Below are positions 7,590 through 32,503 of a stretch of 64,000 nt of DNA, piece by piece (position 1 is the stretch's first letter; each line of letters begins with the position of its first letter). The position numbers were made by a program, and so were the translations under genes. Where the stretch lies: positions 204,949 through 268,948 of the forward strand of contig CAVURJ010000001.1 in NCBI GenBank assembly GCA_963743885.1. Direction: 5' to 3'. Source of the stretch: Candidatus Moraniibacteriota bacterium. Its GTDB lineage: Bacteria; Patescibacteriota; Minisyncoccia; Moranbacterales; UBA1568. A model generated the notes under the pieces. The model was not told the origin of the DNA and ran no database searches. It was given only the letters and a program-made list of their open reading frames with translations.

Positions 7590-7889
7590 TTCTGACTCCT
7601 TTCTGATGGAGAGAGTAGGTTGGTAAAGGACTGCGTATCCTATCGGAAACGCAGGGGGGTGTCAATGCTCGGATCCTCAGAGTTTCATATCGAGACAGGC
7701 GCGTCTGGCGTGCTGACGAAAAAAATCGTCAATAATATGATTTTGTAGGTCGGATATTTCCGCTTAGAGAGGGGAATATCCGGCGGACCTATCCGGATGC
7801 GTATCAGAAATCAGCCCGGTGTGGCGCATCATGTGGGTATCGCCTCTACACTGACGGTGTGTTCGTTGACAACTGAAAAGGAGGGAATC

Positions 7890-9074
7890 ATGGAACGATA
7901 TCAGAACGGCCTCGTGGCATTGTCGGCGGACCCAATCACCTTCGGACACCTGGATCTCATCAGGCAGGCGAAGGAGCGATGTGAATCCGTCGTGGTGCTT
8001 ATCGCGAATAACGATCTGAAGAATGGGTCGTACCTCTTCTCTCTCGAGGAGCGGGTAGCGATCGCCATCCAGGCGGTCGCCTACTCCGGGATCGACGGTG
8101 TCCGAGTGATCGGTTCAGGCGGACTGCTCGTCGATACATACCTCCGCGAAGGATGTGATGCGGTCTTCCGCGGCATCCGCAATGCGAAGGATATCGAGTA
8201 TGAAGAGGAGCAGATGCGGCTGCATACGTTCATCCTTCCGGAGCTTGAGGGACGCATCGTGTTTCTTGAGTCGAGGGAGGAGTATCGCATCATCTCGTCA
8301 TCGCTTGTCAAAGCGTTCGTGCGGAGCCATATCGACGTATCGCGTTTCGTACCGGCCTTCGTGAAGCAGCTGCTCGAAGAACGGATCTGCCGGCAGTACA
8401 AGGTAGCCGTCACCGGTTGCCAGGCGAACGGCAAGACATTCGTAGCGGAGGCTCTCGCGAAGCGGTTGGAAGGACGTGGTATCCAGGTCCATACGATCAG
8501 CATCGATGTACTAGTGCGGCGCCTGTTTGAGGAGGATTCTCCCGGGGCGCAGTCGGTACGCGAGGCGATAGCGGAACTATTCGGAAGTCTGGTGCTGACA
8601 GGGGATCGGAAAGGCGTGGATCGGGCCGCTCTGAAGCGGGCGGTATTCGATCCGACGAACGATCCGGAAAAACGCGAAAAGCTGCATCGTCTGACGGAAC
8701 CGCATGTCGCACGCCTGTATCGGGAAGCGCTTTCGGGGAAGCAGGGGCTTGTCATCGTCGAATGGGCGCAGCTCGCAGAGATGGGCCTTTCGCACTGGAC
8801 CAATCATCAGGCGATTGTCGTCGCAGCGGCTGATGCGGAAGCATTTGCTGCAGCGCGGCTGATCAGTCCTGAAGAGCGGGAACGTGTCAGTCAGTTCCAG
8901 TGGAGCACGGAGCAGAAGGTGGAAGCGCTCTATCGCGCTGCCGATGAAGCGAAGCATGGGACGGTGGTCCAGTTCGTGAATCGGATCGGTGACGAAGCGT
9001 CTCTTGAGAGGCTCGCGGGCCAGATGCTCGAGCTCTTTCCGGATCTCAAAGGTTTCGAAAGGAGGAAGCCATGA
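7890..9074 (+). CDS. bifunctional phosphopantetheine adenylyltransferase / dephospho-CoA kinase (CoaD-CoaE fusion)
   Basis: N-terminal half is LSADPITFGHLDLIRQA...IISSSLVKAFVRSHIDVSRFVP (PPAT). C-terminal half has Walker A VAVTGCQANGKTF and a dephospho-CoA-kinase-like arrangement. RBS aaggaggg precedes ATG 7890. Confidence 0.75.
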   Translation: MERYQNGLVALSADPITFGHLDLIRQAKERCESVVVLIANNDLKNGSYLFSLEERVAIAIQAVAYSGIDGVRVIGSGGLLVDTYLREGCDAVFRGIRNAKDIEYEEEQMRLHTFILPELEGRIVFLESREEYRIISSSLVKAFVRSHIDVSRFVPAFVKQLLEERICRQYKVAVTGCQANGKTFVAEALAKRLEGRGIQVHTISIDVLVRRLFEEDSPGAQSVREAIAELFGSLVLTGDRKGVDRAALKRAVFDPTNDPEKREKLHRLTEPHVARLYREALSGKQGLVIVEWAQLAEMGLSHWTNHQAIVVAAADAEAFAAARLISPEERERVSQFQWSTEQKVEALYRAADEAKHGTVVQFVNRIGDEASLERLAGQMLELFPDLKGFERRKP

Positions 9075-12281: not shown

Positions 12282-13055
12282 TTGGCTATTGGTCATATGT
12301 TGAAAGAAATCAAGCATTCGCTCAAGAATCTCGGCTTCAGCAAGAATGAAGTCGCCGTCTATATCGCGCTCACGCAGCTCGGCGAGTCTCCTGCGGCCAA
12401 AATCGCCAAAAAGGCCGAGTTGCCGCGGACGACTGCCGCGAGCATCCTCCGGCAGATGGTTGAGCACGGCTATGTTTCTGCGCACCTTCATCGTGGCACG
12501 ACGTGGTATTGGATAGAGTCGCTCGATACGATGGAGCATATGCTCAAGAACCGGATCGCGGTCGCTCGCGAGCTGAAGGGGCTGCTTTCAAATTTCTACA
12601 GGAGCGAGGCCGATTTCCCAGAAGCGAAGATCTATGACACGCGGGAGGCCATCAAGACATTCATCGAGAAGACGCTGGTCACACTGAAGGATGGCACACT
12701 CATCCAGACGATGGATACGCCCGGTGCGGCGAATTATACGAAGATCTATTCGGAGAATTTTGATCTAGTGCTGCGCGATCTGAAGCGGAAAAAGAAGATC
12801 ATCACGCATACGCTCATTCCCGCCGGATCCGGCAGTGACATCGATCCGAAGAAGGTCATCAATCAGGGCATCACGCTCCGGGAGATGCCAGCTGGGCTGG
12901 AAGGGTTCCAGGCGTCGTTCTGGGTCATCGATGATTTGTTCGTGCAGTTTTCTGGGCGCTATCCGTTTATCGTCGCGGTGCGGCATAAGCTGATCTCAGA
13001 GAGCATGCGCGCGATATTTCAGTATCTCTGGTCGGTCTCTTCCCCGCTCAAATGA
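12282..13055 (+). CDS. TrmB/MarR-like winged-helix transcriptional regulator
   Basis: N-terminal HTH LKNLGFSKNEVAVYIALTQLGESPAAKIAKKAELPRTTAASILRQMVEHGYV. Confidence 0.55.
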   Translation: MAIGHMLKEIKHSLKNLGFSKNEVAVYIALTQLGESPAAKIAKKAELPRTTAASILRQMVEHGYVSAHLHRGTTWYWIESLDTMEHMLKNRIAVARELKGLLSNFYRSEADFPEAKIYDTREAIKTFIEKTLVTLKDGTLIQTMDTPGAANYTKIYSENFDLVLRDLKRKKKIITHTLIPAGSGSDIDPKKVINQGITLREMPAGLEGFQASFWVIDDLFVQFSGRYPFIVAVRHKLISESMRAIFQYLWSVSSPLK

Positions 13056-13167: not shown

Positions 13168-13305
13168 TTGACAGAATTTTAATAGTGTATATACTACACT
13201 TAGTACTTCGATAGAGCAGAGTGAACGAGGGGAGGGAAGGAGGAGAAAGAAGACAGGCGCCACGGGCGCTTTTCCACAGACTACTTAGTGTAGTATGTAC
13301 ACTAC
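13168..13305 (+). promoter_or_regulatory. sigma70-like promoter (TTGACA-16-TATACT) with an overlapping palindromic operator, plus a second operator copy
   Basis: Operators at 13183-13205 and 13284-13305 share an AGTGTA-N5-TACACT core. The same motif is found upstream of pncB and of pnuC-nadR. Confidence 0.5.
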
Positions 13306-13418
13306 AGAAACGAGAGGGATGCTGGCGGGACGCCTCTTCTCCGAAAGGGAGGGGAGACGCCTCGGAATCATCCGAGGAAGCAGTTCATTGACAATCAATC
13401 AAAGCAAAGGAGCTCATC

Positions 13419-14264
13419 ATGGCAGCCAAAGCGAATGCATACAAGGGCCTCAAGGTGCACCTCATCGTCATCGATCCGCAGAACGACTTCATGGACAGTC
13501 CAGAAGCAGCTCTGCCGGTGCTGGGCGCAAACGCGGATATGCAGCGGCTGGCTGCGCTGATCGATCGGATCGGCGGCCGGCTCGATGATATTCACGTGAC
13601 GCTCGACTCACACCGCGTCATCGACGTCGGACATCCGGGTATGTGGCGCGATTCGGACGGCAACGTCCCGAATCCGTTCACCATCATCTCGGCGGCCGAC
13701 ATCGAGAGCGGCATCTGGGCGCCGCGCAATCCGGGTTTCCGGGCACGTCTTCTGGACTACGCCCGCACGCTCGAGAAGAACGGCAACTACCCGCTCATGG
13801 TCTGGCCGGAGCACTGCATTATCGGGACCCCCGGGCACAATGTCCAGGCGGACCTGATGGCAGCGCTCAAGCGCTGGGAACGACGGGAGTTCGCCAACGT
13901 CGACTACGTGGTCAAGGGCACCAACACCTTCACTGAGCACTACGGTGCTCTCCAGGCGGAAGTCCCCGATCCCGCAGATCCGACGACCACTCTCAACACC
14001 GGTTTCCTCGATGTTCTCGCGCAAGCGGACATCGTGGCGATCGCTGGCGAGGCGCTGTCGCACTGCGTGAAATCGACGGTCTCCCAGATCGCCGACAACA
14101 TCGGTCCCGAGCAGATCAAGAAGTTCCATATCTTGACCGACTGTTCGAGTCCGGTGTCGGCGGTTCCGGGTGGTCCTGATTTCCCAGCCATCGCGCAAGC
14201 GTGGCTTCGGGAAATGGAAGGCCGCGGGATGAAACTCGTGACCTCTGCCGATTTCCTGGCCTGA
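13419..14264 (+). CDS. pncA: isochorismatase-family hydrolase, probable nicotinamidase
   Basis: LIVIDPQNDFMD and a catalytic Cys in ALSHCVKS. Preceded by the NAD-regulon operator and RBS aaaggag. Confidence 0.6.
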   Translation: MAAKANAYKGLKVHLIVIDPQNDFMDSPEAALPVLGANADMQRLAALIDRIGGRLDDIHVTLDSHRVIDVGHPGMWRDSDGNVPNPFTIISAADIESGIWAPRNPGFRARLLDYARTLEKNGNYPLMVWPEHCIIGTPGHNVQADLMAALKRWERREFANVDYVVKGTNTFTEHYGALQAEVPDPADPTTTLNTGFLDVLAQADIVAIAGEALSHCVKSTVSQIADNIGPEQIKKFHILTDCSSPVSAVPGGPDFPAIAQAWLREMEGRGMKLVTSADFLA

Positions 14265-14300: not shown

Positions 14301-15053
14301 ATGCCGAGACTCAATCAGGAAGAAGGGATGGGCAGCCATCGGATCGGCGGCGGGAACTTCACCTTTACCGGTGCCCGCATCGATCAGTTGGGGGCGACCG
14401 AGTATACGCTCGTGACGGTGGCAGTCGATGTCACCGGATCGACGGCGCGGTTTGCCGATGATCTGCGGGCGATGCTCGTGACGGCGGTGGAAGCCTGCAA
14501 GAAGTCGCCGCGTTCGGACAACCTGCTCCTGCGGGCCATCACGTTCTCGACGGCAGTCGGCGGCGTGAGCGAACTGCACGGCTTCAAGCCGCTGGCAGAA
14601 ATCGATCCGAACGCGTATCCGGTATTTTCTCCGGATGGGCTGACACCGCTCTACGACGCGGTCTACTCGTCGGTCGGAGCGATGACGGAATACGGCGAGC
14701 AGCTCATGCAGAATGACTATCTCGCCAACGCCATCGGCTTCATCATCACCGACGGGCTGAACAACGCCGGGACAGCGACGCCCAAGATGATCCGTGACGA
14801 GATCGGAAGTGTGGCGGCCAAGGAACGGCTCGAATCGCTCGTGACGATCTTGATCGGGATCAACGCGGCCGAGTATGAGCGGGAGCTCCGCGAGTTCCAG
14901 CACGAAGCCGGCATCGGGCAGTATATCGATGCGGGCGACGTGACCAAGGCGAAGCTTGCCAAGCTCGCTGACTTCGTTTCGCAGTCGGTATCCAGCCAGT
15001 CTCAAGCGTTGGGCACCGGCGGTCCGAGCCAGAATATCCAGGCCGTCATCTGA
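14301..15053 (+). CDS. vWA domain protein (TerY-like)
   Basis: MIDAS LVTVAVDVTGST. It is the first gene of a vWA / PP2C / kinase triad. Confidence 0.75.
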   Translation: MPRLNQEEGMGSHRIGGGNFTFTGARIDQLGATEYTLVTVAVDVTGSTARFADDLRAMLVTAVEACKKSPRSDNLLLRAITFSTAVGGVSELHGFKPLAEIDPNAYPVFSPDGLTPLYDAVYSSVGAMTEYGEQLMQNDYLANAIGFIITDGLNNAGTATPKMIRDEIGSVAAKERLESLVTILIGINAAEYERELREFQHEAGIGQYIDAGDVTKAKLAKLADFVSQSVSSQSQALGTGGPSQNIQAVI

Positions 15054-15131
15054 TGGTCCGGAGTACGGGGCGGCAGGAGATCTCTCCTTCCGCCCCTTTT
15101 TTTCTTCGAAGTGTATGAGAGGAGAGAAATC

Positions 15132-16052
15132 ATGGATATCAGGAATGCTGACCAGTATTTCCACATCGGATACTCGCATCTCATCGCGGGGAAACCGTGC
15201 GAGGACTACGCGCTCTCTGACATCTACGGAGAAGCGGCGGTAGCGATAGTGTCCGACGGCTGTTCGACCGGAGCCCATACCGACATCGGCTCGCGCATCG
15301 TGGCGCTCTCGATGGCGGGGGCGGTCCGCGATCAGTTGTCTGGCGGGAAGGGTTTGTCCGGCAGCCAGTCGGCGCGGGAGATCCGCAAGCGTCGCGGAGA
15401 GATCATCGCGGAGAGCAAGAGCATCCTTGGTCTCGAGGATCGGAATTTGCTCGCGACCTCTGTCGCCGCGGTATCTGCTTCACACGGCGCGATGGTCTTC
15501 GTGGACGGGGATGGCGTCGTCGCCTTCAAGTATCGCGATGGACAGTCTGTCCTCTGGCGATTCGAATGGGACGGCAACATGCCTTTCTACCCCGCGTACA
15601 GCGGAGAAGACCAGGAGCGTTTCGTGGCGGCGCATGGGGGCGATCCGGCAGTGGTCCGTTTTCGGCAGTCCGTCTGGGTATGCGGAAGCGATGGCACGCT
15701 CGAGGATAAAGGAGAGCGGTTGTGGACGCTTGCGGAAGGGATGGCGGGCATCACGCTCTTCGTCCCAGGCTCGCATCTGTCTGCCGAGCTGGAATACATC
15801 GCGGTCTTTACCGATGGTGTCACCCAGATTGCGGAGACGGATTGGAAGGACGCAGCACTCGGATTTCTGTCCTTCAAGAGTACGGCTGGCGAATTCGCGA
15901 AGCGCCGGATGATGAGCGGACTCCGGGATCTGCGCAAGGCGGGACGGGAGCCGCTCGACGACATCGCGTATGCGGTGCTTCACTTCAACTCTGACGAAAC
16001 CAAGGAGGCGGATCATGGCACAAGCGAAGAGCAATCTCAAGGTAACGCTTGA
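15132..16052 (+). CDS. PP2C-family Ser/Thr protein phosphatase
   Basis: AVAIVSDGCSTGAHTDIGS, VFVDGDGVVAF, and AVFTDGVTQ match PP2C metal-binding motifs. RBS aggaga precedes ATG 15132; the ORF is open from GTG 15111. Confidence 0.6.
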   Translation: MDIRNADQYFHIGYSHLIAGKPCEDYALSDIYGEAAVAIVSDGCSTGAHTDIGSRIVALSMAGAVRDQLSGGKGLSGSQSAREIRKRRGEIIAESKSILGLEDRNLLATSVAAVSASHGAMVFVDGDGVVAFKYRDGQSVLWRFEWDGNMPFYPAYSGEDQERFVAAHGGDPAVVRFRQSVWVCGSDGTLEDKGERLWTLAEGMAGITLFVPGSHLSAELEYIAVFTDGVTQIAETDWKDAALGFLSFKSTAGEFAKRRMMSGLRDLRKAGREPLDDIAYAVLHFNSDETKEADHGTSEEQSQGNA

Positions 16053-17748
16053 AGGCCGCGGGACGCTCGTCCTCCGGCCAAGCGATCACATCGCGACGGG
16101 CGGGGAGGGTTCGGTATACCGTGCCGGAGGCATGGTCGTGAAGGTCTACACCGATCCAGCACATATGCAGCGGGATGATATGGCCGGCAAGATCAGGCTG
16201 CTTTCTGGCCTGAAGCATCCGTCCATCGTCGCGCCGCACGGATTGGCGCTCGGCCAGAGCGGCGAGCCGATCGGGTACTACATGCCCTTCGTCCCGGGCG
16301 AGCCGCTGACACGCGCATTCACGAACGATTTCCGTATCCGCGAGGGTTTCGGTGATCGGGAGACGAGGCAGCTCGTCGATCGGATGCGCGAGACGGTTCG
16401 GTTCGCCCATGGAAGACAGGCTATCCTCGTCGATGCGAATGAGCTCAACTGGCTCGTGAAGCCGGGCAGCAAGAATGGTCCCGAGCCGTACGTCATCGAC
16501 GTCGATTCTTGGGCGGTCGGTCGGTGGCCAGCGAAGGTCATCATGCCATCCATCCGTGATTGGCAGTCAAAGGGATTCGACGAGGGGACGGACTGGTTCG
16601 CCTGGGGAGTTGTCACCTTTCAGGTGTTCTCAGGCATTCATCCGTACAAGGGCAGTCTGGATGGGTATAAGCGCGGTGATCTGGAAGGCCGGATGCGGGC
16701 GAAGGCTTCGGTCTTCACGCCAGGCATCGGGCTCAACCAGGCAGTGCGGGACTTCTCGTCCATTCCTGGGCCGCTCCTCAATTGGTATGAGGCGGCGTTT
16801 CAGGGGAGCGAGCGGTCAGAGCCGCCATCGCCGTTTCAGACCGGAGCACCGACAGCGAAATTGGCTCCGGTACGGCGAGCGGTCGCGACGGCCCAGGGAC
16901 TACTCGTCTACGACAAGTTGTTCGATGGCACGGGCGATCCGGCGATCAGAGTCTTCCCTTCCGGTGTCGTCATGACCAAGAAGGGGCGGCTCATCGACCT
17001 CTCCACGAAGCGTGAGATCGGGCAACCGCTCTCACGTGACGGCGAGGTCATCCGGGTGGAGGGCGGCTGGCTCAAGGCGGACTGGAAGGGCGGGCAGGCG
17101 GAGTACTCATTCGTCTCGAACACCCTTTCCGAAGAAGCCGTCTCGGTCCAAGCGAGCGTCTATCGCGTCGTGCGAAGTAGCAATCGGATGTTCGCAGTGA
17201 CGGACACGGGCCTCACCGAGCTCACCGTGCGTCTGTTCGCTCGCCCAGTGCTCTCGCTCGGACGGACATGGGGCGTCATGCGTCATGCTCTCCGGTGGTT
17301 CGACGGTGTGGGCGTGCAGGATGCTCTCGGGGCGATGTATCTCGTCGCACCGTTCGGCACCGAAAGCTGCGCGTACGTGCGGGTACCCGAGCTCGACGGG
17401 CTCCGGGTGATCGCTGCCAAGGCCGGGCATCGTTTCGTCTCAGCCATCGCGGCCGATGTGAACGGGATGTATCGGAAGCTCGAGTTCGCATTCGATAGCG
17501 AGTACCGGAGCTATACGCTGTGGCAGGGCGTGACGGATGATCCGGATCCCAATATCGCCATCCTGCCCAAGGGAGTGTGTGCCACGATTGTGGAGGACGG
17601 TGAGCTCGTCATCTTCGTCCCGGCGAACGGCCAGACGAACAAGGTGAAGGATCACCGCATCACGACCGCTCTCGCCCTCGCCAACTGGGAGGATCGAGTG
17701 GTCTACGTCTCCCAAGGCGAAGTGTGGCAGGTGCGACTCAAGCAGTAG
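16015..17748 (+). CDS. atypical protein-kinase-like protein with a ~300-aa beta-rich C-terminal domain
   Basis: GGEGSVYRA glycine loop, VKVY, HGRQAILVDANELNWLV catalytic-loop-like, IDVDSWAV, and DWFAWGVVTFQVFSGIHPY. RBS aaggagg precedes ATG 16015. The start overlaps the PP2C gene end. Confidence 0.6.
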   Translation: MAQAKSNLKVTLEGRGTLVLRPSDHIATGGEGSVYRAGGMVVKVYTDPAHMQRDDMAGKIRLLSGLKHPSIVAPHGLALGQSGEPIGYYMPFVPGEPLTRAFTNDFRIREGFGDRETRQLVDRMRETVRFAHGRQAILVDANELNWLVKPGSKNGPEPYVIDVDSWAVGRWPAKVIMPSIRDWQSKGFDEGTDWFAWGVVTFQVFSGIHPYKGSLDGYKRGDLEGRMRAKASVFTPGIGLNQAVRDFSSIPGPLLNWYEAAFQGSERSEPPSPFQTGAPTAKLAPVRRAVATAQGLLVYDKLFDGTGDPAIRVFPSGVVMTKKGRLIDLSTKREIGQPLSRDGEVIRVEGGWLKADWKGGQAEYSFVSNTLSEEAVSVQASVYRVVRSSNRMFAVTDTGLTELTVRLFARPVLSLGRTWGVMRHALRWFDGVGVQDALGAMYLVAPFGTESCAYVRVPELDGLRVIAAKAGHRFVSAIAADVNGMYRKLEFAFDSEYRSYTLWQGVTDDPDPNIAILPKGVCATIVEDGELVIFVPANGQTNKVKDHRITTALALANWEDRVVYVSQGEVWQVRLKQ

Positions 17749-17897
17749 CAGTATACCGGGGAATGGCTGAAACTAGCCTTCCCCGGATTTTTTTGTGACT
17801 ACGCGCTATTGACAGGATGGTATTTGCGTGATATTTTTATCCGTTATTTAAAAATTTTTACAACCACGCAGGATCCTTCAAGAAAGGGAGGAATGTC

Positions 17898-19052
17898 ATG
17901 GAAGTAGTGTACGCGAAAGAAAAGGCCCCGGAGGGGTATACGAAGTCGCTGTTCTTGGCTGGGCCGACCCCTCGCGATGCCTGGGTATCGTCTTGGAGGC
18001 CGGAAGCACTGGCAATCCTCGAAGCGAGCGGCTATGACGGCGTCGTCTTCGTTCCTGAAGCACGCGATGGCAAGTGGGCGAAGGGATACGAGGATCAGGT
18101 GGAATGGGAAGAGAAGCATCTCAACATGGCGGACTGCATTGTTTTCTGGGTTCCCCGGGAGATGAACACCATGCCGGCCCTGACCACCAACACCGAATGG
18201 GGCGTATGGCAGGATAGCGGCAAAGTCGTTTTCGGCGCCCCGGAGCATGCCGAGAAGGTCCGTTACCAGATCTATTACGCCAACCAGTTCAAGGTGTCCA
18301 TCAGTAGCAGCATCGAGGATACCATTCGGAGCGCGTTGTCGTTCATCGGCGAAGGCGTTTTGCGGTCTGGTGGCGAAAGAGATGTCCCTCTTTTCATCTG
18401 GAAGACGCCTCATTTCCAAGCGTGGTATTCCGCGCAGAAGAATGCGGGCAACAGGCTGGATGGTGCGAGGGTAGTCTGGACGTTCCGTGTAGGACCCAAC
18501 AGGAATTTCGTTTTCTTCTGGGCTCTCCACGTTGACGTCTTCATCGCCAGTGAGAACCGCAACAAGACCAACGAAGTCGTCCTTTCCAGGCCGGATATAG
18601 CGACTGTTGTGATGTATCGGCGAGCGGTGACGCTCGAAGAGACGACGGTCGTCTTGATCCGGGAATTCCGCAGTCCGGCGGCGACTGTCGACGGCTATGT
18701 CTGGGAAATACCAGGCGGGTCGTCATTCAAGCCGAAGGGCAATCCTCTGGAGTTGGCGGCGGCGGAATGCGAGGAGGAGACGGGACTGAGCGTGGATCCC
18801 ACACGGGTTTCTTTCCATAACGTACGCCAGCTCGTGGCGACGCTCTCTGCCCACAAGGCGCACGTATTTTCTGTCGAGATCACCTCGGAGGAAGTCGCTG
18901 CGCTTGAGGAGCAGAAAGGTATTCCGCACGGGGTACTGGAGGACACGGAAAGGACGTATGTGGAAGTCACGACCCTCGGCGAAATCCTCAAGCAGAACAA
19001 GGTCGACTGGTCCATGCTCGGGATGATCCTCTCCGTCATCAACCAGCGATAG
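17898..19052 (+). CDS. fusion of a nucleoside 2-deoxyribosyltransferase/DNPH1-like N-glycosidase domain and a Nudix hydrolase
   Basis: N-terminal flavodoxin-like region LFLAGP...YDGVVFVPE...EWEEKHLNMADCIVFWV...TEWGVWQDSGKVVFGAPE. C-terminal Nudix box GGSSFKPKGNPLELAAAECEEETGL. RBS aagggagg is upstream. Confidence 0.6.
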   Translation: MEVVYAKEKAPEGYTKSLFLAGPTPRDAWVSSWRPEALAILEASGYDGVVFVPEARDGKWAKGYEDQVEWEEKHLNMADCIVFWVPREMNTMPALTTNTEWGVWQDSGKVVFGAPEHAEKVRYQIYYANQFKVSISSSIEDTIRSALSFIGEGVLRSGGERDVPLFIWKTPHFQAWYSAQKNAGNRLDGARVVWTFRVGPNRNFVFFWALHVDVFIASENRNKTNEVVLSRPDIATVVMYRRAVTLEETTVVLIREFRSPAATVDGYVWEIPGGSSFKPKGNPLELAAAECEEETGLSVDPTRVSFHNVRQLVATLSAHKAHVFSVEITSEEVAALEEQKGIPHGVLEDTERTYVEVTTLGEILKQNKVDWSMLGMILSVINQR

Positions 19053-19240: not shown

Positions 19241-19927
19241 ATGGGAGTAAATCTAAACGAAAATAAACTCCGAAAAGCTGAAGTAGAGGCTTTCAAAAAT
19301 GGCATCAGGCTACATTTTGATGCCATTAAGCTTTTTGAGAATAAATCGTATCCCAGCGCCTATGCCCTATCGGTTTTATCTTTGGAGGAATTCGGAAAAC
19401 AACGTCTAATTGATGAAATACTCTTTCGTTACATTGAGCATAAGGGAGAATTTGAAAACGATAAACAGTTTACTGATTTTTGTAAGGATTTTGAAAACGG
19501 GATGTTAAGTCATTCTTTGAAACAGGGATTTGCTGTATCAGACGATTTTCCGTTCATGAGGGGACGTAACAGAATGCAGAGAGGATTTTTATATAAAATG
19601 TTTAATCACAAGAATGGAAGGAAATTGATTGATGGTTGGAAAATGAGATCAATTTATGTCGGGTTTGAACACAATAGCTTAAAAGGGAGAATACAAACAC
19701 CGCTAAGCTTTATTAAGAGAAAAAAAGCACAAGATCAAATAACCGCCATAAATGATTATTTAGTAAATTTTATAATTTACCTTAGACAAGGCAGATGGAC
19801 GCTCGATAATGAAAATCTTATGAGGTTTTATAACACCAATCTTTTGAATAAACTCGTTGATATTTGGAAGAACAGACATGAGGACACTAGAAGCAGGCTA
19901 GATACCTTTTTGAGTTCTCGGAAGTAA
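19241..19927 (+). CDS. AbiV-like abortive-infection protein (tentative)
   Basis: AIKLFENKSYPSAYALSVLSLEEFGKQ is reminiscent of the AbiV-family N-terminus. First gene of a low-GC island. Confidence 0.3.
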   Translation: MGVNLNENKLRKAEVEAFKNGIRLHFDAIKLFENKSYPSAYALSVLSLEEFGKQRLIDEILFRYIEHKGEFENDKQFTDFCKDFENGMLSHSLKQGFAVSDDFPFMRGRNRMQRGFLYKMFNHKNGRKLIDGWKMRSIYVGFEHNSLKGRIQTPLSFIKRKKAQDQITAINDYLVNFIIYLRQGRWTLDNENLMRFYNTNLLNKLVDIWKNRHEDTRSRLDTFLSSRK

Positions 19928-20050
19928 TAATTGGTTAATGATTTTTTTGCTAATTTTTTGTTTGAATTGATTGCGTGATATAGTAAAGGCAGTTGACAAA
20001 GGTAAGAGATTTTTATTATAGGTAGCTAATTAAGGCCATAAAATATTTTT

Positions 20051-20563
20051 ATGATAAATGTAAATAAAATAAACGATATATTAGGATTTTTTTCGGACAA
20101 TGTTTCGGATCTAACTGTTACTAAGATAATGAAGTTATTTTATTATGTTGATTTTGTTTCTTTTGCAGAAAAAAATACTTCTGTTACAAACGATGTTTAT
20201 TATAAGCTTCCTTACGGTCCAATTCCCTCTTTTATTAAAAACGAGATCAACACTCTGACTTTCAAAACCATGCTTGGAGCAGAGGCTGGAGATTTGCAAA
20301 TTTCAAAAAATTTCGGAGTGGAACAGAAAAAGATAGGCAAGTATGATGCTTATGTTGTTAAAAATAATGGAAAAAAGAGTTCTCTTGAGAACTTATCTGG
20401 TTATGAGGTAGAACTCATAAAAAGGATATTAAATAAGTTTGGAAAGAAAACGGCAAAGGAACTAACTGATCGTACTCACAAAGAGAAACCATATCTTTTG
20501 ACAAATGAAAATTCAATTATTGATTATAAACTTGCTAGTTTTCTTAATACCAGTTCTATTTAA
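20051..20563 (+). CDS. Panacea-domain (DUF4065, SocA-like) protein, a putative antitoxin
   Basis: TKIMKLFYYVDFVSFAEKNTSVTNDVYYKLPYGPIPSFI matches the Panacea/DUF4065 pattern. Confidence 0.55.
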   Translation: MINVNKINDILGFFSDNVSDLTVTKIMKLFYYVDFVSFAEKNTSVTNDVYYKLPYGPIPSFIKNEINTLTFKTMLGAEAGDLQISKNFGVEQKKIGKYDAYVVKNNGKKSSLENLSGYEVELIKRILNKFGKKTAKELTDRTHKEKPYLLTNENSIIDYKLASFLNTSSI

Positions 20564-20568
20564 CAAGT

Positions 20569-21117
20569 ATGGGAGACTACGGGTTTGGCGATGTTTATGA
20601 TTGCAGAAATGTTCCAGAAGTGGAACATTTTATTGTTATATTAGGATTTCAGGAAATTAAGGGGAAGAAGATTATATTTTATGAAAAAGTAACTTCACGA
20701 GTTTATAAAGCCTTCAAGAAACTCAGTGATTTTTTTGAGGGTAACTGTAATGGGCAATGCAAGAAGTTCAAGCATAATTTCAAAGATAAGACCCCCATTT
20801 TCCATTACGGGAAATTATGCTTTACGTTATTTTTAGATAAGGACGAAAACTATCTCAATGAAGATAGCATGGTTGTGATAAAGGGTGATCCAGAGAAGAC
20901 GGACGAAACTATTATGGAGCAATGGATTAAGGCCGGACTAGCTAAATCGAAAACGAGAATTTCAAATGTAGACATTTATAAGTTAATGGCTATATTAAAT
21001 AACTCGGATAATTTAAGTAGTCCAGTAATCCATCATATCCGTCTCGCCTTTAGTGGGGTTGATAAAATGATAAAGATGCAAAACCTTCAGAAGGCTAGTA
21101 AGAAAAAGAAGAAATAG
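20569..21117 (+). CDS. hypothetical protein, candidate toxin partner of the Panacea protein
   Basis: Starts 6 bp downstream of the Panacea gene on the same strand. No recognisable domain. Lys-rich tail. Confidence 0.4.
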   Translation: MGDYGFGDVYDCRNVPEVEHFIVILGFQEIKGKKIIFYEKVTSRVYKAFKKLSDFFEGNCNGQCKKFKHNFKDKTPIFHYGKLCFTLFLDKDENYLNEDSMVVIKGDPEKTDETIMEQWIKAGLAKSKTRISNVDIYKLMAILNNSDNLSSPVIHHIRLAFSGVDKMIKMQNLQKASKKKKK

Positions 21118-21158
21118 TGGTTTGTAAAAAGAAGAAAAGGGAGAAGAAAAGGGGTCAA

Positions 21159-21240
21159 GTACCTTTTTAAGAAAGAAATGACACACCCGAGGCGCGGGAA
21201 GAATCTTTCATGACGGATCGGTCCGGCCCGCAGCATCGCA
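21159..21240 (+). repeat. island repeat copy A (~100 bp) with an embedded SD plus mini-ORF MTHPRRGKNLS* (21178-21213)
   Basis: About 85% identical to 22326-22432 and 23258-23367. Followed by hairpin terminators at 21286-21320. Confidence 0.6.
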
Positions 21241-21491
21241 AGACTAGAGAATGGGTTAAGTAGAACAATTTCCCCACTACAAAAAGTAACACGAAATGAC
21301 GGCCGTCGTTTCGTGTAACATTTTTGTTTTGATTTACCCTGTGAAATCCGACTTTGTCGGTCCGCCTACTGGCGGAATTTCACAGGGTGAATATTGACCG
21401 GTTTTCATGGCTGGATGTATACTTATATATGTAAGTCATGTAAACATCTTGGTTACCTGAGAAGTTGGTAACGGGATGAGCAAAAACAATT

Positions 21492-22299
21492 ATGAAAAAG
21501 ATAGAAGTGCAGGGGATTGAGATAGCCATAGTCTCTCAAAAAGAGCATGACTATATCTCTTTGGCTGATATGCTGAGAGCGAAAGATGGGGATTTCTTCA
21601 TATCTGATTGGCTGAGAAATAGGAATACGGTCGAATTTTTAGGAATCTGGGAACGGATTAATAACCCGGATTTTAATTATGGCGAATTCGCCATAATTAA
21701 AAGCCAAGCAGGGCTCAATAGCTATAAAATCAGTGTTAAGGAATGGGTGAAGAAAACGAGGGCTAGGATTGAAATCAACAGCCGGACGATATGGCGGAAC
21801 TTTCGCTCATAAGGATATTGCCTTCGAATTTGGTATGTGGATATCGCCGGAATTCAAGTTGTACCTTATTAAGGAGTTCCAGCGACTGAAAGTTGAGGAA
21901 AATGAAAGACTGATACTAGGTTGGGACGTGAAGCGGATGCTGACGAAGATGAACTATAAGATTCATACGGATGCGATAAACGAGAACATTGTCATTCCAC
22001 AGAAACTGTCGCAGAAGGATGCGAATATGACGTATGCGAATGAGGCGGACGTTTTGAATATGGCGCTTTTTGGCATGACAGCGAAAGCCTGGAGAGATAA
22101 GAATAGGAAAAAGGAAGGGAACATGCGGGACTATGCTGATGTGACGCAGCTCGTGTGTCTCGCCAATCTTGAGGGGTTGAATGCGGAGTTCGTCAGGATG
22201 GGAATGACGCAAAAAGAACGATTGCTCAGGTTGAATGAGGCAGCGATAGCGCAGATGAAATCGCTTTCGGGAAACAAGAATATCCGGAAGTTTCTATAA
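21492..22299 (+). pseudogene. KilA-N domain protein interrupted by a frameshift (ORFs 21492-21812 and 21769-22299)
   Basis: N-part ISLADMLRAKDGDFFISDWLRNRNTVEFL and C-part GGTFAHKDIAFEFGMWISPEFKLYLIKEFQRL together form one KilA-N domain. The two frames overlap at 21769-21812. Confidence 0.55.
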
Positions 22300-22325
22300 G
22301 AATTGAGAAGATAAGGAATCGAACG

Positions 22326-22432
22326 CCTTTTCAAGGAAGAAATGATGCATCCGAGGCGTGGGAAGGATCTTCTGTGACGAATCGATCCGGTCCGCAGCAT
22401 CGCGGGAGCAGGGGAATCTGAATATCACCCAG
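22326..22432 (+). repeat. island repeat copy B with mini-ORF MMHPRRGKDLL* (22342-22377), followed by a terminator
   Basis: See copy A. Downstream aaaacagccctgtctagagctgtttttt is a terminator. Then comes the palindrome gttaactattgactatatagttaac. Confidence 0.6.
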
Positions 22433-22553
22433 TAAAACAGCCCTGTCTAGAGCTGTTTTTTGTATCGAGAAAGAAAGTCTTGTTAACTGCTGTAGTGTAA
22501 GTATTCTATTGTTAACTATTGACTATATAGTTAACATATGTTAACATAAGGAT

Positions 22554-22808
22554 ATGGAAAAACAATTCTATACAACCAAAGAGATTTCGGAGTTGCTTGG
22601 CGTTAGCCGAGTGACTGTTTTCAAACAGATCAAATCTGGAAAGATTAAGGCTCAGAAAGTCGGGCGTAACTATATCATCCTCAAAGAGGACATGCCGGAA
22701 ATGCTGAACAAATCGTTGAAAGAATTTGATAAATCGAATATTCAGGATGCAGTGAAAAAAGTGGTAGACGAGTACAGCGAGACCCTTAAGCTTCTTGGGA
22801 AGGAATGA
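22554..22808 (+). CDS. HTH (excisionase/MerR-type) DNA-binding protein, putative Phd-like antitoxin
   Basis: YTTKEISELLGVSRVTVFKQIKSGKIKAQKVGRNYII HTH. Its stop overlaps the start of the Doc gene. Confidence 0.6.
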   Translation: MEKQFYTTKEISELLGVSRVTVFKQIKSGKIKAQKVGRNYIILKEDMPEMLNKSLKEFDKSNIQDAVKKVVDEYSETLKLLGKE

Positions 22809-23269
22809 GAATAAAGCAGATCTCAATCGTAGAGGTGGAGTATGTGGCGCATCGTCTTGCGCAGGAGACGATGAAGTGGAGCGAGCCCATACCTGATTTC
22901 AGCACTCGTTATCCGAGAGTGCTTGAGAGCTGTCTCGCAGCTCCTTTTCAGACATTCAGTCGGAAAGTTTTGTATAAAGGTCTTCATGGAAAAGCCGCCA
23001 TGTTGTTTTATCTGATGGTGAAGAACCATCCTTTTGAGAATGGAAATAAGAGGATTGCGATGACAACACTTCTTTATTTCCTGTATAAGAACGGGAAATG
23101 GATCAAAGCGGATGAAATGGAGTTTTATAATTTCGCGAGATGGGTGGCTGAGAGCAGCCCGAAGTTCAAGGATGAGACTGTTGCGGCTGTTCGGAAATTC
23201 GTTACGACTAATATGATAGACGTCGCTACTCAAGCATTAGAAAAGAAAGAGGATCGAGTACCTTTTTAA
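22805..23269 (+). CDS. doc: Doc (death-on-curing) family toxin (Fic fold)
   Basis: Doc variant motif HPFENGNKRIAMTTLLYFLYKNG. Translationally coupled to the upstream HTH gene. Confidence 0.8.
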   Translation: MRIKQISIVEVEYVAHRLAQETMKWSEPIPDFSTRYPRVLESCLAAPFQTFSRKVLYKGLHGKAAMLFYLMVKNHPFENGNKRIAMTTLLYFLYKNGKWIKADEMEFYNFARWVAESSPKFKDETVAAVRKFVTTNMIDVATQALEKKEDRVPF

Positions 23270-23367
23270 GGAAGAAAAGATGCATCCGAGGCGCGGGAAG
23301 AATCTTCCATGATGGATCGGCCCAGTCCGCAGTATCGCGGGAGCAGGAGAATCTGAATATCACCCAG
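23258..23367 (+). repeat. island repeat copy C with mini-ORF MHPRRGKNLP* (23280-23312)
   Basis: The repeat begins inside the last codons of doc (RVPF*), which means it supplies the doc stop codon. Confidence 0.6.
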
Positions 23368-23469
23368 CAAAACAGCCTTCATTTGAGGATTGTTTTTTGT
23401 TCCCTGCAATGGATGTTCTGATTAGGTGCTTAAAAATGGCTTGATATAAGGACATTGTGCATATACTGG

Positions 23470-23579
23470 GAAAATATGTAAAAAGTAGTGAATATTGTTA
23501 TATTTATGAGTAAATTCACTAAATATTGACAAAAAGTAGTGAATATACTACAATTAACGCATACTATTCACTAAAAAAT
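23470..23579 (+). promoter_or_regulatory. promoter (TTGACA 23526-23531, TACAAT 23549-23554) flanked by AGTAGTGAATAT / ATTCACTAAA inverted and direct repeats
   Basis: aaaaagtagtgaatat occurs twice, and attcactaaa occurs twice in inverted orientation to it. This looks like an operator architecture upstream of the Fic gene. Confidence 0.45.
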
Positions 23580-24461
23580 ATGGCAATCACTCAACCGATT
23601 AAGAATCGTATCCAAGCGTTGAAGAAGGAGTTTGATGCCTTGAAAAAAGGAAGGGAATCGCTTTTGGTGCTGCTTGATGAAGCCGAGATTCCGGAAAGCG
23701 TCTATAATTCCAACGCTATTGAGAATTCGACGCTTACGCTCAAGGAGACGGAGAAGATCCTACTTGATGTATCGGTGTCGCGCGACGTATCGGTGCGGGA
23801 AGTTTTTGAGACGAAGAATCTCGCTCGCGTCATCAACTATATCCGCACGAAATCCCAAGGAAAAGAGATCGATAGGGAAATGGTCCTGCTGTTGCACCAG
23901 ATGCTCATCGGGGGCATCAAAGATGAAATCGCGGGACGCTTCCGGACAAAAGGGGAGTATGTCCGGGTAGGAACATATATTGCTCCGGCACCGGAGCATG
24001 TAGAGCTGATGATCGCTTCAATCTTTTCTGGATACGAAAGCGAGCATGATTCGTATTTTCTCGATAAGATGGCAAAGTTCCATCTGGACTTTGAGAATAT
24101 CCATCCATTCTGCGATGGCAACGGCCGCATCGGTCGGGTGCTTGCCTGTTACCAATTGCTTCGATTGGGATTTCCTTTGATTATCATTCGGGACAAGGAA
24201 AAGGAAATGTACTACCAGGCATTTGCTGATTATCGCGATGGAAAGAATACGAAGACGATGGAAAAGGTGTTTTCGCTGGCACTTACGGAATCACTGTATA
24301 AACGCATTACGTATTTGAAGGGAGAAAAAATCATGACACTCGCTGACTATGTGAAGAAACACAAAAAATCAGCCGCTGCCATGTCGAATGCTGCTCGTCG
24401 TCAGAACATACCAGCTTTCCGCGAAAAGGGCGTTTGGAAGATCGGGGAGAAGTTTAGATGA
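23580..24461 (+). CDS. Fic family protein
   Basis: HPFCDGNGRIGRVLACYQL. Start is taken at MAITQPIKN; the TTG at 23526 in the ORF track is the -35 box. Confidence 0.85.
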   Translation: MAITQPIKNRIQALKKEFDALKKGRESLLVLLDEAEIPESVYNSNAIENSTLTLKETEKILLDVSVSRDVSVREVFETKNLARVINYIRTKSQGKEIDREMVLLLHQMLIGGIKDEIAGRFRTKGEYVRVGTYIAPAPEHVELMIASIFSGYESEHDSYFLDKMAKFHLDFENIHPFCDGNGRIGRVLACYQLLRLGFPLIIIRDKEKEMYYQAFADYRDGKNTKTMEKVFSLALTESLYKRITYLKGEKIMTLADYVKKHKKSAAAMSNAARRQNIPAFREKGVWKIGEKFR

Positions 24462-25362: not shown

Positions 25363-25401
25363 TTGACAGGAAACTATATAGTGTATATACTACACTTAGT
25401 A
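25363..25401 (+). promoter_or_regulatory. promoter TTGACA-17-TATACT with overlapping operator atagtgtatatactacacttagta
   Basis: Same motif as upstream of pncA-like and of pnuC. Confidence 0.5.
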
Positions 25402-25490: not shown

Positions 25491-26741
25491 ATGGAAACGC
25501 TCAAGAGATTGTGGGGCAAGGACGAGCCGGTGGTCAGCAGCTTGCTCGAGACGGATGTCTACAAGATCCTCATGTTGTATTTCATCTGGCGGTATTTCCC
25601 GAGCTTGCGAGTGAAGTTCGGATTCACCAATCGTACCCGCACGGTGCGCTTGGCCGAATCACTCGACATCGGGCTGCTCCGAGAGAACATCGAGCACGTG
25701 AAGACGCTCCGGTTCTCGGATGCGGATATTGCGTACATCCGGTCGTGGCAGATGATGCCGGAGGAATTCCTTCTGGCACTTCGGGACCTGCAGCTCTCGG
25801 ACATTGCGGTCGAGAAGACGCGTGATGGACAGCTCCGCATCGAGCCCAGCGGGCTCTGGTTCAATAGCACGCTGTGGGAACTCTTTATCCTGCCGATGAT
25901 CACGGAACTACGAGCGCGCCAAGCGATCGGCGAAAGCGATGCCGCGCACGAAGCAGTGATCAAAGACGGAGAAGAGCGCCTGCTTGTCAAGATCCCGACG
26001 CTCAAGAGTCTGCACTGGAAGATCGCGCTGTTCGATCTCCGTCGCCGGCTGACGGGACGCTGGGAGCGGCATACGTCGCGTATCCTCTACGAGGAGATCC
26101 CGGAGCGGCTCTCTGGCATCTCGAACGTCGCTCTGGCGCGCGAGATGGGAGTCGAGCCGATGGGGACCAATGCGCACGAACTGCCGATGGCACTGGTCGC
26201 GCTGCGTTCCCACGAGGGGCCGGAAGCGATGCGGGCGGCGCTCTACGAGGTGCTCGAGAAGTGGCAGAGTCTCTTCGGCCACAAGGCGCTCATCATGCTG
26301 CCGGATACGTTCGGAAGCGACTACTTCTTCCGCAACCTGCCGAGCAGATACCTTCGGGACTTCCGCGGTTCGCGGCAGGACTCGGGTGATCCGCTCGCCT
26401 ACGGGGAGGCTCGCATCCGCGACTATCGCGAAGCTGGCATCGATCCGACGCAGAAGCTCGTGCTGTTCTCAGACGGGCTCACGCCGGAGAAGATGCAGGA
26501 GCTCGAGATGCATCTCTCCGGAAGGATCGGCGGCGGCTTTGGTTGGGGGACCAACAAGAGCCATGATGTCGCTGCGCTTCCGCCCATGTCGATCGTGATG
26601 AAGCTCATCGAAGCGGCAGGCAATCCGGCGGTCAAGCTGTCCGATAACATCGACAAAGCGACCGGATTTGAGCCAGGCGTGGTCGAAGCCAAGCGGGTCT
26701 TCGGATACCGCGCGGAGTTTCGCGAAGCGCCGATCTACTGA
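25491..26741 (+). CDS. pncB: nicotinate phosphoribosyltransferase
   Basis: LETDVYKILM, MGTNAHELPMAL, FRGSRQDSGDP...IDPTQKLVLFSDGL, and IVMKLIEAAGNPAVKLSD are collinear with PncB. Confidence 0.85.
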   Translation: METLKRLWGKDEPVVSSLLETDVYKILMLYFIWRYFPSLRVKFGFTNRTRTVRLAESLDIGLLRENIEHVKTLRFSDADIAYIRSWQMMPEEFLLALRDLQLSDIAVEKTRDGQLRIEPSGLWFNSTLWELFILPMITELRARQAIGESDAAHEAVIKDGEERLLVKIPTLKSLHWKIALFDLRRRLTGRWERHTSRILYEEIPERLSGISNVALAREMGVEPMGTNAHELPMALVALRSHEGPEAMRAALYEVLEKWQSLFGHKALIMLPDTFGSDYFFRNLPSRYLRDFRGSRQDSGDPLAYGEARIRDYREAGIDPTQKLVLFSDGLTPEKMQELEMHLSGRIGGGFGWGTNKSHDVAALPPMSIVMKLIEAAGNPAVKLSDNIDKATGFEPGVVEAKRVFGYRAEFREAPIY

Positions 26742-26860
26742 AACGCCAACCTGTGGGAATATCTCGGAACATCGAGGTATCCCCACTCTTTTTCGGACCA
26801 TCATGTGTGGTGATCCGAAAGAGGGATATTTCAAGCAAGATCTTTAACAAGGAGACCGAT

Positions 26861-28516: not shown

Positions 28517-28602
28517 GTCGGAGGACGGCCTTTCACGGGTGTGGATACGATGTATCCCACCCGTTTTTTCTTTGCATGAATTTGACCCCGCACCGCTTGA
28601 GC

Positions 28603-28642
28603 TTGACAAGAATATTTAAAGGTGTATACTATACACTAAGTA
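28603..28642 (+). promoter_or_regulatory. promoter TTGACA-16-TATACT with overlapping operator ggtgtatactatacactaagta
   Basis: GGTGTA-N5-TACACT half-sites. Lies upstream of pnuC-nadR. Confidence 0.5.
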
Positions 28643-28766
28643 AGGAAGTGGCTCGTGGTCGACGCGTCTCTCTCGTACGGTAATAGTGTAATAAGTACAA
28701 TAACTAAATACGGTAGGAGGGAAAGGACGGGAAGAGGGAGTGTAACCAGTAATATCACATACGACT

Positions 28767-29486
28767 ATGATAGCTTCATTCTTCGATATCAATAACGTGT
28801 TCTTCACGCTCTGGGACTATCCTATGAGCTACCTCGAGTTCTTCGGGACGATATTCAATATCCTCTGCGTCTGGCTGACGACCCGGAAGAGCATCTGGAA
28901 CTGGCCGGTCGGCATCGCTGCGGTCATCCTCTTCGGCGTGCTGTTCTACCAGATTCAGCTGTACTCGGATTTCATCGAGCAGGTCTACTATCTCGCGACG
29001 GGCATCTGGGGTTGGATCGTCTGGAGCCGCGTACGTGAGCAGTCGGCCAAGAAGGGCAGACTGGCGTCTGATGTGAAGCCTGCGACTGCCGCGCAGTGGG
29101 CGATCGTGGGAGTGGTGCTCCTCTTCGGGACGCTCGCGCTCGGGGGACTGATGGCGCGGATCGATACCATATTTCCCGAGTGGTTCCCGGAAGCGGCTTC
29201 TTTCCCGTATCTCGATGCTTTCACGACGGTGGCGTCGTTCGCGGCGCAGGTACTGCTCATCCTCAAGGTCGTCGAGAACTGGTACCTCTGGATCGCGGTC
29301 GATATCATCGGCGTGTGGCTCTACTATGAGAAGGAAGTGAAATTCGTCTCCGTGCTCTATTTCATCTTCCTCATCCTGGCAACTAAGGGGCTGCTCTCGT
29401 GGAAGAAGGAGTCCAAGCAATCGGAAAGCGGGGAATCGGCGCCTGTTCTGGGTGAGCCAGAAAGAGAGGGGGTGCCGGCCATATGA
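28767..29486 (+). CDS. pnuC: nicotinamide riboside / NMN transporter PnuC
   Basis: Multi-TM protein with a PnuC-like N-terminus NNVFFTLWDYPMSYLEFFGTIFNILCVWL...W..VGI. Confidence 0.75.
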   Translation: MIASFFDINNVFFTLWDYPMSYLEFFGTIFNILCVWLTTRKSIWNWPVGIAAVILFGVLFYQIQLYSDFIEQVYYLATGIWGWIVWSRVREQSAKKGRLASDVKPATAAQWAIVGVVLLFGTLALGGLMARIDTIFPEWFPEAASFPYLDAFTTVASFAAQVLLILKVVENWYLWIAVDIIGVWLYYEKEVKFVSVLYFIFLILATKGLLSWKKESKQSESGESAPVLGEPEREGVPAI

Positions 29487-30484: not shown

Positions 30485-30543
30485 TTGACACTTATAGCTG
30501 CGGGCGTATACTGGAAGCGGACAATTCATCAAACTTCTCTCCT

Positions 30544-31230: not shown

Positions 31231-31243
31231 AAGAATAGAGAGA

Positions 31244-31272
31244 AAAAACGAGGCAGATTGCCTCGTTTTTTG
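31244..31272. terminator. bidirectional terminator between nrtR and xer
   Basis: The sequence aaaaaacgaggcagattgcctcgtttttt. Confidence 0.6.
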
Positions 31273-32275: not shown

Positions 32276-32300
32276 TAGAATTGTAACATACCCTTTTTTA

Positions 32301-32460: not shown

Positions 32461-32503
32461 GCTTTTTTTAGGCAAAATAATTGGAAAATCACCATTTTTA
32501 TGA

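Follow-up and report, generated by a model that had tools for sequence, protein, structure and literature searches.

Candidate NrtR operators at the NAD-salvage genes of a Candidatus Moranbacteria chromosome

The stretch of DNA considered here (the window; 64,000 nucleotides, positions 204,949 to 268,948 of contig CAVURJ010000001.1 from a Candidatus Moraniibacteriota bacterium) carries genes for the salvage of nicotinamide adenine dinucleotide (NAD) in several plus-strand units: an operon headed by a gene for a nicotinamidase-like (PncA-like) amidase, pncB with glutamine-dependent nadE, pnuC with nadR, and the regulator gene nrtR, which follows nadR and has an additional promoter of its own (Table 1). 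We regard them as four separate units because terminator-like hairpins, as read from the sequence, stand before each promoter. The NadR protein has nicotinamide mononucleotide (NMN) adenylyltransferase and ribosylnicotinamide kinase domains and has no helix-turn-helix (HTH) at its N-terminus, because its alignment starts at position 65 of the E. coli-type NadR model. The nrtR product combines an N-terminal Nudix domain (Pfam NUDIX, E 8.5e-14) with a C-terminal winged helix (NrtR_WHD, E 1.7e-26). Palindromic sites in the leaders of these units are the subject of this report, and we consider them very probably to be operators of the locally encoded NrtR repressor.

Both strands of the window were searched for RGTGTA-N5-TACACT with at most one mismatch, and dinucleotide-preserving shuffles (n=100) served as the control. 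Eleven strand-matches were observed against 0.06 expected, and none of the 100 shuffles reached eleven. The matches represent six distinct sites, every one of them in the leader of an NAD or nrtR unit, and the rest of the 64 kb has no site: two are at the pncA-like operon, one at pncB-nadE, two at pnuC-nadR and one at the internal nrtR promoter. Three of them cover -10 boxes, one covers the nrtR -35 box and two are located downstream in the leaders. The arrangement AGTGTA-N5-TACACT is equivalent to GTGT-N7-ACAC and fits an NrtR-type palindrome with a GT-N7-AC core.

The original prediction had placed this site upstream of three NAD-salvage units, with two copies within 13168-13305, and the sequence and the pattern search bore these positions out. 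Its inventory of four copies was nevertheless incomplete, as operators 3b and 4 had been missed. The 'ggtgta' variant that it gave for both pncB and pnuC is present at pnuC but not at pncB, whose 23-mer is identical to that of the first site (TAGTGTATATACTACACTTAGTA, operators 1a and 2). Similarly, its statement that every copy is embedded in a TTGACA-16/17-TATACT promoter holds for operators 1a, 2 and 3a, in which the -10 box is covered, but not for operator 1b, which is situated about 95 nt downstream in the leader, outside the promoter and 103 bp from operator 1a centre to centre. Operator 1b is inverted, because its AAGTA flank is on the opposite side.

Table 1. Coordinates of promoters, candidate operators, genes and terminators in the window.
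Feature	Position	Strand	Details and basis
pncA-like operon promoter	13168-13195	+	-35 TTGACA 13168-13173, 16-nt spacer, -10 TATACT 13190-13195
Candidate operator 1a	13179-13205	+	core AGTGTA-TATAC-TACACT 13184-13200, TAGTA flank; over -10 box and likely transcription start
Candidate operator 1b	13282-13308	-	core AGTGTA-GTATG-TACACT 13287-13303; minus strand reads TAGTGTACATACTACACTAAGTA; pncA-like leader
Nicotinamidase-like (isochorismatase-fold) amidase, divergent; operon gene 1	13419-14264	+	PncA model E 2e-4
TerY/YegL-type vWA protein with MIDAS motif	14301-15053	+	AlphaFold and Foldseek, homolog alignment
PP2C-family phosphatase	15111-16052	+	PP2C_2 E 2e-14
Protein-kinase-like protein	15970-17748	+	weak: Pkinase E 0.014, MLK kinases E 0.006
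Terminator-like hairpin ending the operon	17756-17794	+	CCGGGGAA...TTCCCCGG, 15-nt loop, then T-run; read from sequence
pncB-nadE promoter	25363-25391	+	-35 25363-25368, 17-nt spacer, -10 TATACT 25386-25391
Candidate operator 2 (pncB)	25375-25401	+	core 25380-25396, over -10 box
pncB and nadE	25491-28516	+	pncB 25491-26741, glutamine-dependent nadE 26753-28516; Pfam-type domain search
pnuC-nadR promoter	28603-28630	+	-35 28603-28608, 16-nt spacer, -10 TATACT 28625-28630
Candidate operator 3a (pnuC)	28616-28642	+	core GGTGTA-TACTA-TACACT 28621-28637, AAGTA flank; over -10 box
Candidate operator 3b (pnuC leader)	28680-28706	+	degenerate core AGTGTA-ATAAG-TACAAT 28685-28701; 64 bp downstream of 3a
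pnuC and nadR	28767-30484	+	pnuC 28767-29486, nadR 29483-30484; domain/family model searches
Candidate operator 4 (nrtR)	30476-30492	+	GGTGTA-TGATT-GACACT; overlaps nadR stop codon and nrtR -35 box
Internal nrtR promoter	30485-30512	+	-35 TTGACA 30485-30490, 16-nt spacer, -10 TATACT 30507-30512
nrtR	30544-31230	+	228-aa form, agrees with most homologs
Bidirectional terminator ending the nrtR unit	31243-31271	+	terminator scan

The promoters themselves were located by a scan of 19 kb (12.5-31.5 kb) for the consensus sigma-70-like arrangement TTGACA-16/17-TATACT. The top five matches (11/12) start at 13168, 23526, 25363, 28603 and 30485, and four of the five carry an NrtR-type site. The remaining one belongs to a Fic-family gene (TTGACA 23526, TACAAT 23549) and is flanked on either side by a copy of another inverted repeat, TAGTGAAT-N20-ATTCACTA (23486-23572), which is probably the operator of another regulator. 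This repeat explains a pseudo-match of the NrtR pattern at 23537 (three mismatches), and the latter was rejected as an NrtR site. The start codon of nrtR is ambiguous: a protein of 249 residues would result from ATG 30481, which overlaps the stop codon of nadR (ATGA), and ATG 30544, which lies downstream of the internal promoter, would give 228. Both forms may arise from different transcripts. The internal promoter is also kept in a related locus (L004).

The domain composition of the nrtR product agrees with the earlier assignment of a Nudix-winged-helix protein of NrtR architecture to the end of the pnuC-nadR unit. The protein matched the NCBIfam NrtR model NF050029 with E 4e-49 and 167 bits, under the equivalog cut-off of 400, and its matches in the PDB were led by BtAraR (E 1.8e-44) and included SoNrtR (E 9.5e-34). 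The protein shares the recognition helix DKRNFRK with BtAraR, residue for residue; the corresponding helices are QGKSFRR in SoNrtR, HKQNFRR in NadQ and DHSNFKK in an E. faecalis homolog. In the crystal structure of BtAraR with DNA, the operator is GCAAAAGTGTTACTTTTACACCCATGC with a core of AGTGT-N7-ACAC, K179, R180, N181 and K184 of the DKRNFRK helix together with the wing define the 'GTGT', and the dimer covers 25 bp (PMC4666351). We take this shared helix as the strongest sequence-level argument that the NrtR of the window may read the predicted site. Moreover, NrtR sites are known as palindromes of about 21 bp with a GT-N7-AC core, which are placed either at the promoter or in the stretch from there to the start codon, with tandem sites in Shewanella (PMC2330246); compared with known motifs, the sites of the window share the core of this family (PMC2330246). 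The Nudix box is degenerate (RVLSEK replaces REUxEE in the PDB-search alignment), which argues that the Nudix domain serves as a sensor and is non-catalytic.

GTDB representative genomes were searched with NrtR as the query, and three distant loci were obtained, two from Ktedonobacteria and one from a metagenome-assembled genome. In Ktedonobacteria, nrtR (50% identity) is accompanied by TAGTGTA-N5-TACACTAAGT immediately behind a TTGACA promoter, and matching sites are carried by the nrtR genes of other members of the candidate phyla radiation (CPR) as well. Four related loci (L004 and L008-L010; NrtR identity 69-92%) keep both the pnuC-nadR-nrtR operon and the two-site pnuC leader, the spacing of the sites being 63-64 bp. 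The site just before nrtR is kept in these four loci and in L005, and L011 has a similar one with a more degenerate right arm. Since this site falls in a different nadR reading frame in L008 and is intergenic behind an unrelated gene in L005, its conservation is at the DNA level and not the protein-coding level. A locus from Moranbacteria (L013) has two sites between NAMPT-Nudix genes and nrtR. Between its two sites (28650-28675), the pnuC leader also has ACGCGYGGTCGACGCGT, a near-palindrome rich in GC with a T- or C-rich tract behind it. This element is kept in L004 (about 78-95) and L008 (about 8152-8168) despite diverged flanks; it forms a small hairpin in these two loci, whereas the copy in the window has a degenerate left arm.

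A scan of metagenomes of the Joint Genome Institute (JGI) for exact TAGTGTA-N5-TACACTWAGTA yielded at least 120 loci (L015-L134; 0.76 Mb in total). Among the matches listed, an NrtR homolog is encoded in 22 of these loci, and homologs of NrtR or of the operon genes of the window are found in 39, with NadE in 11, PncB in seven, NadR in six, PnuC and the PncA-like protein in five each, and a fusion of a nucleoside 2-deoxyribosyltransferase-like domain to a Nudix domain (NDT-Nudix) in three. In 20 listed loci, such a homolog has its 5' end no more than 400 bp downstream of the site. Neighbours in the remaining listed loci include NadA (four), major facilitator superfamily transporters (five), nicotinate phosphoribosyltransferase (one) and isochorismatase (one), and the rest are miscellaneous. 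The DKRNFRK helix is kept in 33 of 36 motif-linked NrtR homologs. The listed copies occur in both orientations, and their left flank, which was not constrained in the scan, is weakly symmetric to the right one (A 64%, C 39%, T 60%). Because of this weak symmetry and because some sites are fully symmetric and match both strands, the full operator is likely to be a 27-bp palindrome, TACTWAGTGTA-N5-TACACTWAGTA. Other listed genes adjacent to the motif encode FabH-like 3-oxoacyl-acyl carrier protein synthase III (four), glucosaminidase (three) and Band-7 proteins (three); these may reflect chance, closely related contigs or unrecognised regulon members.

Non-random occurrence, position at promoters, conservation and co-occurrence with nrtR and NAD genes are thus direct observations on these sites, and the NrtR regulon that the original prediction had put forward gained strength from the site geometry of the family, the helix identical to that of BtAraR and the joint presence of motif, NrtR and NAD genes in unrelated metagenomic loci. 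On the other hand, several points weigh against NrtR control of NAD genes. About 60% of the listed metagenomic loci are without a recognisable NAD gene beside the site, which probably reflects contigs that are short, matches that arise by chance in AT-rich DNA, or members of the regulon that are unknown. The closest relative in the PDB by sequence, BtAraR, is an arabinose sensor and no sensor of ADP-ribose (ADPR). Of the residues that contact phosphate in SoNrtR, R41 and N43 are replaced by Ile and Thr in the NrtR of the window, and therefore the effector could differ from ADPR. The -10 hexamer TATACT sits inside the conserved 23-mer, and therefore some of the identity between promoters reflects conservation of the promoter and not of the operator. 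Finally, the scan spans 64 kb of a 652-kb contig.

The palindrome could be the operator of another regulator, which may be the adjoining TrmB-like HTH protein (12282-13055), a niacin repressor of the NiaR type or an HTH-bearing NadR. The TrmB-like gene ends 130 bp before the first site, and among the elements of TrmB operators are TACT..AGTA-like ones, which have a superficial likeness to the outer flank of the sites. However, when 134 loci bearing the motif or NrtR were searched by tblastn, the TrmB-like protein gave one weak match, 9 kb from a site, compared with 36 loci for NrtR, and this neighbour was ruled out as the regulator for want of co-occurrence with the motif across loci. NiaR has a core of GTGT-N6-ACAC, the spacing of which is unlike that of the site; none of the open reading frames (ORFs) that were scanned at the NAD clusters and in their surroundings is NiaR-like, and the motif travels with NrtR. 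The NadR of the window begins at the equivalent of residue 65 of E. coli NadR and so has no HTH. We therefore consider control by any of these three proteins very improbable.

Even less credit can be given to the possibility that the shared sequence is a strong, recently duplicated promoter cassette (TTGACA-N16/17-TATACT with the start region) with no operator role, though the -10 hexamer does form part of the conserved 23-mer and the pncA-like copy does not differ from the pncB copy in any of its 23 nt. Two sites, 13287-13303 and 28685-28701, are off promoters, and the former is inverted, and the nrtR site overlaps a -35 box and not a -10 box. Elsewhere, the spacer in which the -10 box sits varies but the GTGTA and TACAC arms are fixed, and metagenomic copies are found in both orientations, some of them fully symmetric.

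Equally hard to credit is that the leaders act as RNA, as a riboswitch or attenuator for an NAD-related ligand. In other phyla, pnuC and nadA are preceded by NAD+ riboswitches; the leaders are of considerable length (about 130-220 nt), and their paired sites are separated by small GC hairpins with U- or C-rich tracts behind them. However, Rfam gave only three tRNAs over the whole window at the gathering threshold and only noise for two leaders at E up to 10, leader fold z-scores were unremarkable (-2.4, +0.9, -0.9 and -0.6), and the left arm of every promoter-proximal site is upstream of the predicted transcription start and so absent from the RNA.

With NrtR as the regulator, the following mechanism can be proposed. 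A dimer of NrtR would bind the 27-bp palindrome, its DKRNFRK helix reading the GTGT-N7-ACAC core and its wing the outer AGTA. Repression by promoter occlusion is argued by the three sites over -10 boxes and the one over a -35 box: in the pncA-like, pncB-nadE and pnuC-nadR units, NrtR bound to an operator that spans the -10 box and start site would exclude RNA polymerase. The second sites in the pncA-like and pnuC leaders may act as a roadblock or allow cooperative binding, making repression tighter. At the internal nrtR promoter, covering of the -35 box would lead to autoregulation; the original prediction had proposed autoregulation, and this has gained support from the operator-covered promoter and from the preservation of its site in five other loci. 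When NAD is consumed, a breakdown nucleotide would enter the Nudix pocket and NrtR would leave the DNA. This release would turn on PnuC and NadR for uptake and conversion of nicotinamide riboside, the PncA-like protein and PncB for the path from nicotinamide through nicotinate to nicotinate mononucleotide (NaMN), and NadE. No nadD was seen in the window, where the NAD-forming genes are only pncB-nadE and pnuC-nadR (25491-30484); a Francisella-type route, in which NadE converts NaMN to NMN and the adenylyltransferase of NadR converts NMN to NAD, is conceivable.

By analogy with the known family, ADPR is the most likely releasing effector. The ADPR contacts K76 and R98 of SoNrtR are kept in the pocket as K71 and R93, and BtAraR has L and G there; in addition, the arabinose-binding Arg34 of BtAraR is Ile in the NrtR of the window. 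On the other hand, Corynebacterium NdnR responds to NAD. A phosphorylated product of NAD breakdown such as ADPR is thus our best guess from the pocket residues.

The predicted regulon resembles those described for NrtR in that a Nudix and winged-HTH regulator is encoded beside its targets (pncA, pncB, nadE, pnuC and nadR), and in its GT-N7-AC palindrome, its promoter and leader sites, which are sometimes tandem, and autoregulation, which is a prediction here (PMC2330246). It differs from known NrtR regulons in its lineage, Candidatus Moranbacteria (Patescibacteria), in the order pnuC-nadR-nrtR with an extra internal nrtR promoter and in the inclusion of a vWA-PP2C-kinase triad. In the literature searched, we found nothing on NrtR together with any CPR term. 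With BtAraR (PDB 5BS6, PMC4666351), the regulator shares the DKRNFRK helix and the GTGT-N7-ACAC core, and the footprint of about 25 bp compares well with a site of 23-27 bp. In contrast, AraR senses L-arabinose and controls arabinose genes, whereas the predicted targets here are NAD genes, and the pocket positions Leu67 and Gly89 of BtAraR are Lys and Arg here, as in ADPR-binding SoNrtR. NiaR (YrxA) and the enterobacterial NadR likewise repress pnuC, pncB and niaP through promoter palindromes, but these regulator families are unrelated. The site also differs in sequence from the NadR box, TGTTTA-N6-TAAACA (PMC2330246), and the window NadR, unlike the enterobacterial one, is without the HTH.

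The nicotinamidase-like gene named as a target in the original prediction is indeed present, but it heads an operon of four genes, the others encoding a von Willebrand factor A (vWA) protein, a PP2C-family phosphatase and a kinase-like protein. The matches of the PncA-like protein to nicotinamidases are weak but consistent, among them the PDB nicotinamidase 29iv with E 1e-3, and its JGI name is 'nicotinamidase-related amidase'. The stretches 'VIDPQNDF', 'WPEHC', 'KG' and 'SHCV' around the active site align with nicotinamidase, and we take their residue roles to be those of M. tuberculosis PncA. Sequence and profile searches of the PDB with the vWA protein gave no match, and its fold was recovered by AlphaFold and Foldseek only: the AlphaFold2 model has a pLDDT of 84.8, and Foldseek placed it closest, with E about 1e-7, to domains of the vWA type and to integrin I-domains. 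The residues of its metal ion-dependent adhesion site (MIDAS), D43, T45, S47, T115 and D151, are invariant in 26 homologs, the source names of which include 'YegL'. In total, the vWA protein has about 2000 homologs across CPR classes, typically with 60-80% identity. Homologs of the kinase-like protein in L136 and L137 show a faint Pkinase match.

The whole four-gene operon is found in L080 (62, 62, 38 and 54% identity for the PncA-like, vWA, PP2C and kinase proteins, respectively) and, reached independently through vWA homologs, in L135 (Saccharimonadales), L136 and L137. L120 and L094 have PncA-like and vWA homologs together and L025 a PncA-like homolog alone. Genes behind NrtR-type sites in L011 and L012 were compared with the PncA-like and vWA genes and are not homologous. 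Wherever sites are present (the window, L080, L120, L094, L025 and L136), two NrtR-type sites precede the PncA-like gene. In L136, the module stands between NAD-kinase-nrtR and pncB-nadE, with nadA, a nadD-like gene of the cytidylyltransferase family and a radical-SAM gene divergently upstream, and NrtR-type sites are located before nadA, before NAD-kinase-nrtR and, as a pair, before the pncA-like operon.

A set of a TerY-type vWA protein, PP2C and a Ser/Thr kinase, the TerY-P triad, was reportedly described by Anantharaman et al. in 2012, and in 2020 Gao et al. are said to have presented it as a system against phages. The operon of the window likewise brings together a MIDAS-bearing vWA protein, PP2C and a kinase-like protein (the last by weak matches). 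Unlike the TerY-P triad, the triad of the window type is always preceded by a PncA-like amidase and is highly conserved across CPR classes, with predicted NrtR control where NrtR is present. The literature searched held no connection between TerY and nicotinamidase, and PADLOC gave no match for the PncA-like, vWA, PP2C or NDT-Nudix proteins and a marginal mad6 match for the kinase. One speculative extension, which we think rather doubtful though worth stating, is that NrtR in Patescibacteria does more than tune salvage and, through the conserved double operator, gates a PncA-like amidase coupled to a phospho-switch of TerY-type vWA, PP2C and kinase, so that sensing of ADPR or NAD depletion would be wired to a signalling or defence-like triad. 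If this were true, the depletion sensed could stem from NADase toxins, phage attack or host interaction, and the gated module would sit in a lineage that lives on other cells, without de novo NAD synthesis in this locus.

The NDT-Nudix fusion lies behind this operon (17898-19052). It joins the nucleoside 2-deoxyribosyltransferase-like domain PF15891 to a Nudix domain nearest to ADP-ribose pyrophosphatase (1v8i, E 9e-4), and its copy in the window stands behind a separate promoter (17809-17837) and has no NrtR site. Its homologs in L026, L049 and L080 are in operons behind NrtR-type sites, beside pnuC-nadR or pncB. The fusion may be a missing enzyme of NAD recycling or effector degradation.

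To our knowledge, the ways in which Patescibacteria regulate transcription have hardly been studied, and growth of these bacteria on their own is not possible. A regulon readable from sequence would give a handle on when an episymbiont with a reduced genome scavenges NAD precursors, and the present analysis provides a candidate sensor protein together with four promoters and a predicted operator of 27 bp. The regulatory principle is already known, as NrtR regulons of this geometry have been described since 2008; the lineage is what is new. Moreover, a widely conserved CPR operon (PncA-like, vWA, PP2C and kinase) would be tied to NAD metabolism, which would be the first functional context for the roughly 2000 uncharacterised vWA proteins.

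The window is chromosomal: it carries genes for initiation factor 2 (IF-2), BipA and a CCA-adding enzyme and three tRNA genes; the named best matches of IF-2 are all from Candidatus Moranbacteria, with 75-81% identity. Downstream of nrtR (31292-46008) are genes for a tyrosine integrase (minus strand), a LysM-CHAP hydrolase and an AbiEii-like protein, and a cluster resembling a type IV secretion system (TrbL, PrgI, TraC-like and VirB4-like). The integrase and LysM-CHAP genes also flank nrtR in the Moranbacteria locus L013. An integrative conjugative element was considered from the integrase and secretion genes and dropped in view of the same IF-2, BipA, CCA-adding enzyme and tRNA genes. In addition, a preprint reports that a type IV secretion system with homology to the monoderm conjugation machinery is present in Patescibacteria. 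Between the NAD units, an island of low GC content (19241-24461; 36-47% against 56-60% in the flanks) encodes AbiV-like HEPN, SocA/Panacea antitoxin-like and Fic/SoFic-like proteins (PADLOC PDC-S04, E 6e-36 for the last) and looks like a small defence and toxin-antitoxin island. Finally, an ORF at 7797-9074 has a cytidylyltransferase-like domain and, in the same frame, one of dephospho-CoA kinase (CoaE), and may encode a fused phosphopantetheine adenylyltransferase/dephospho-CoA kinase (PPAT/DPCK) for the last steps of CoA synthesis.

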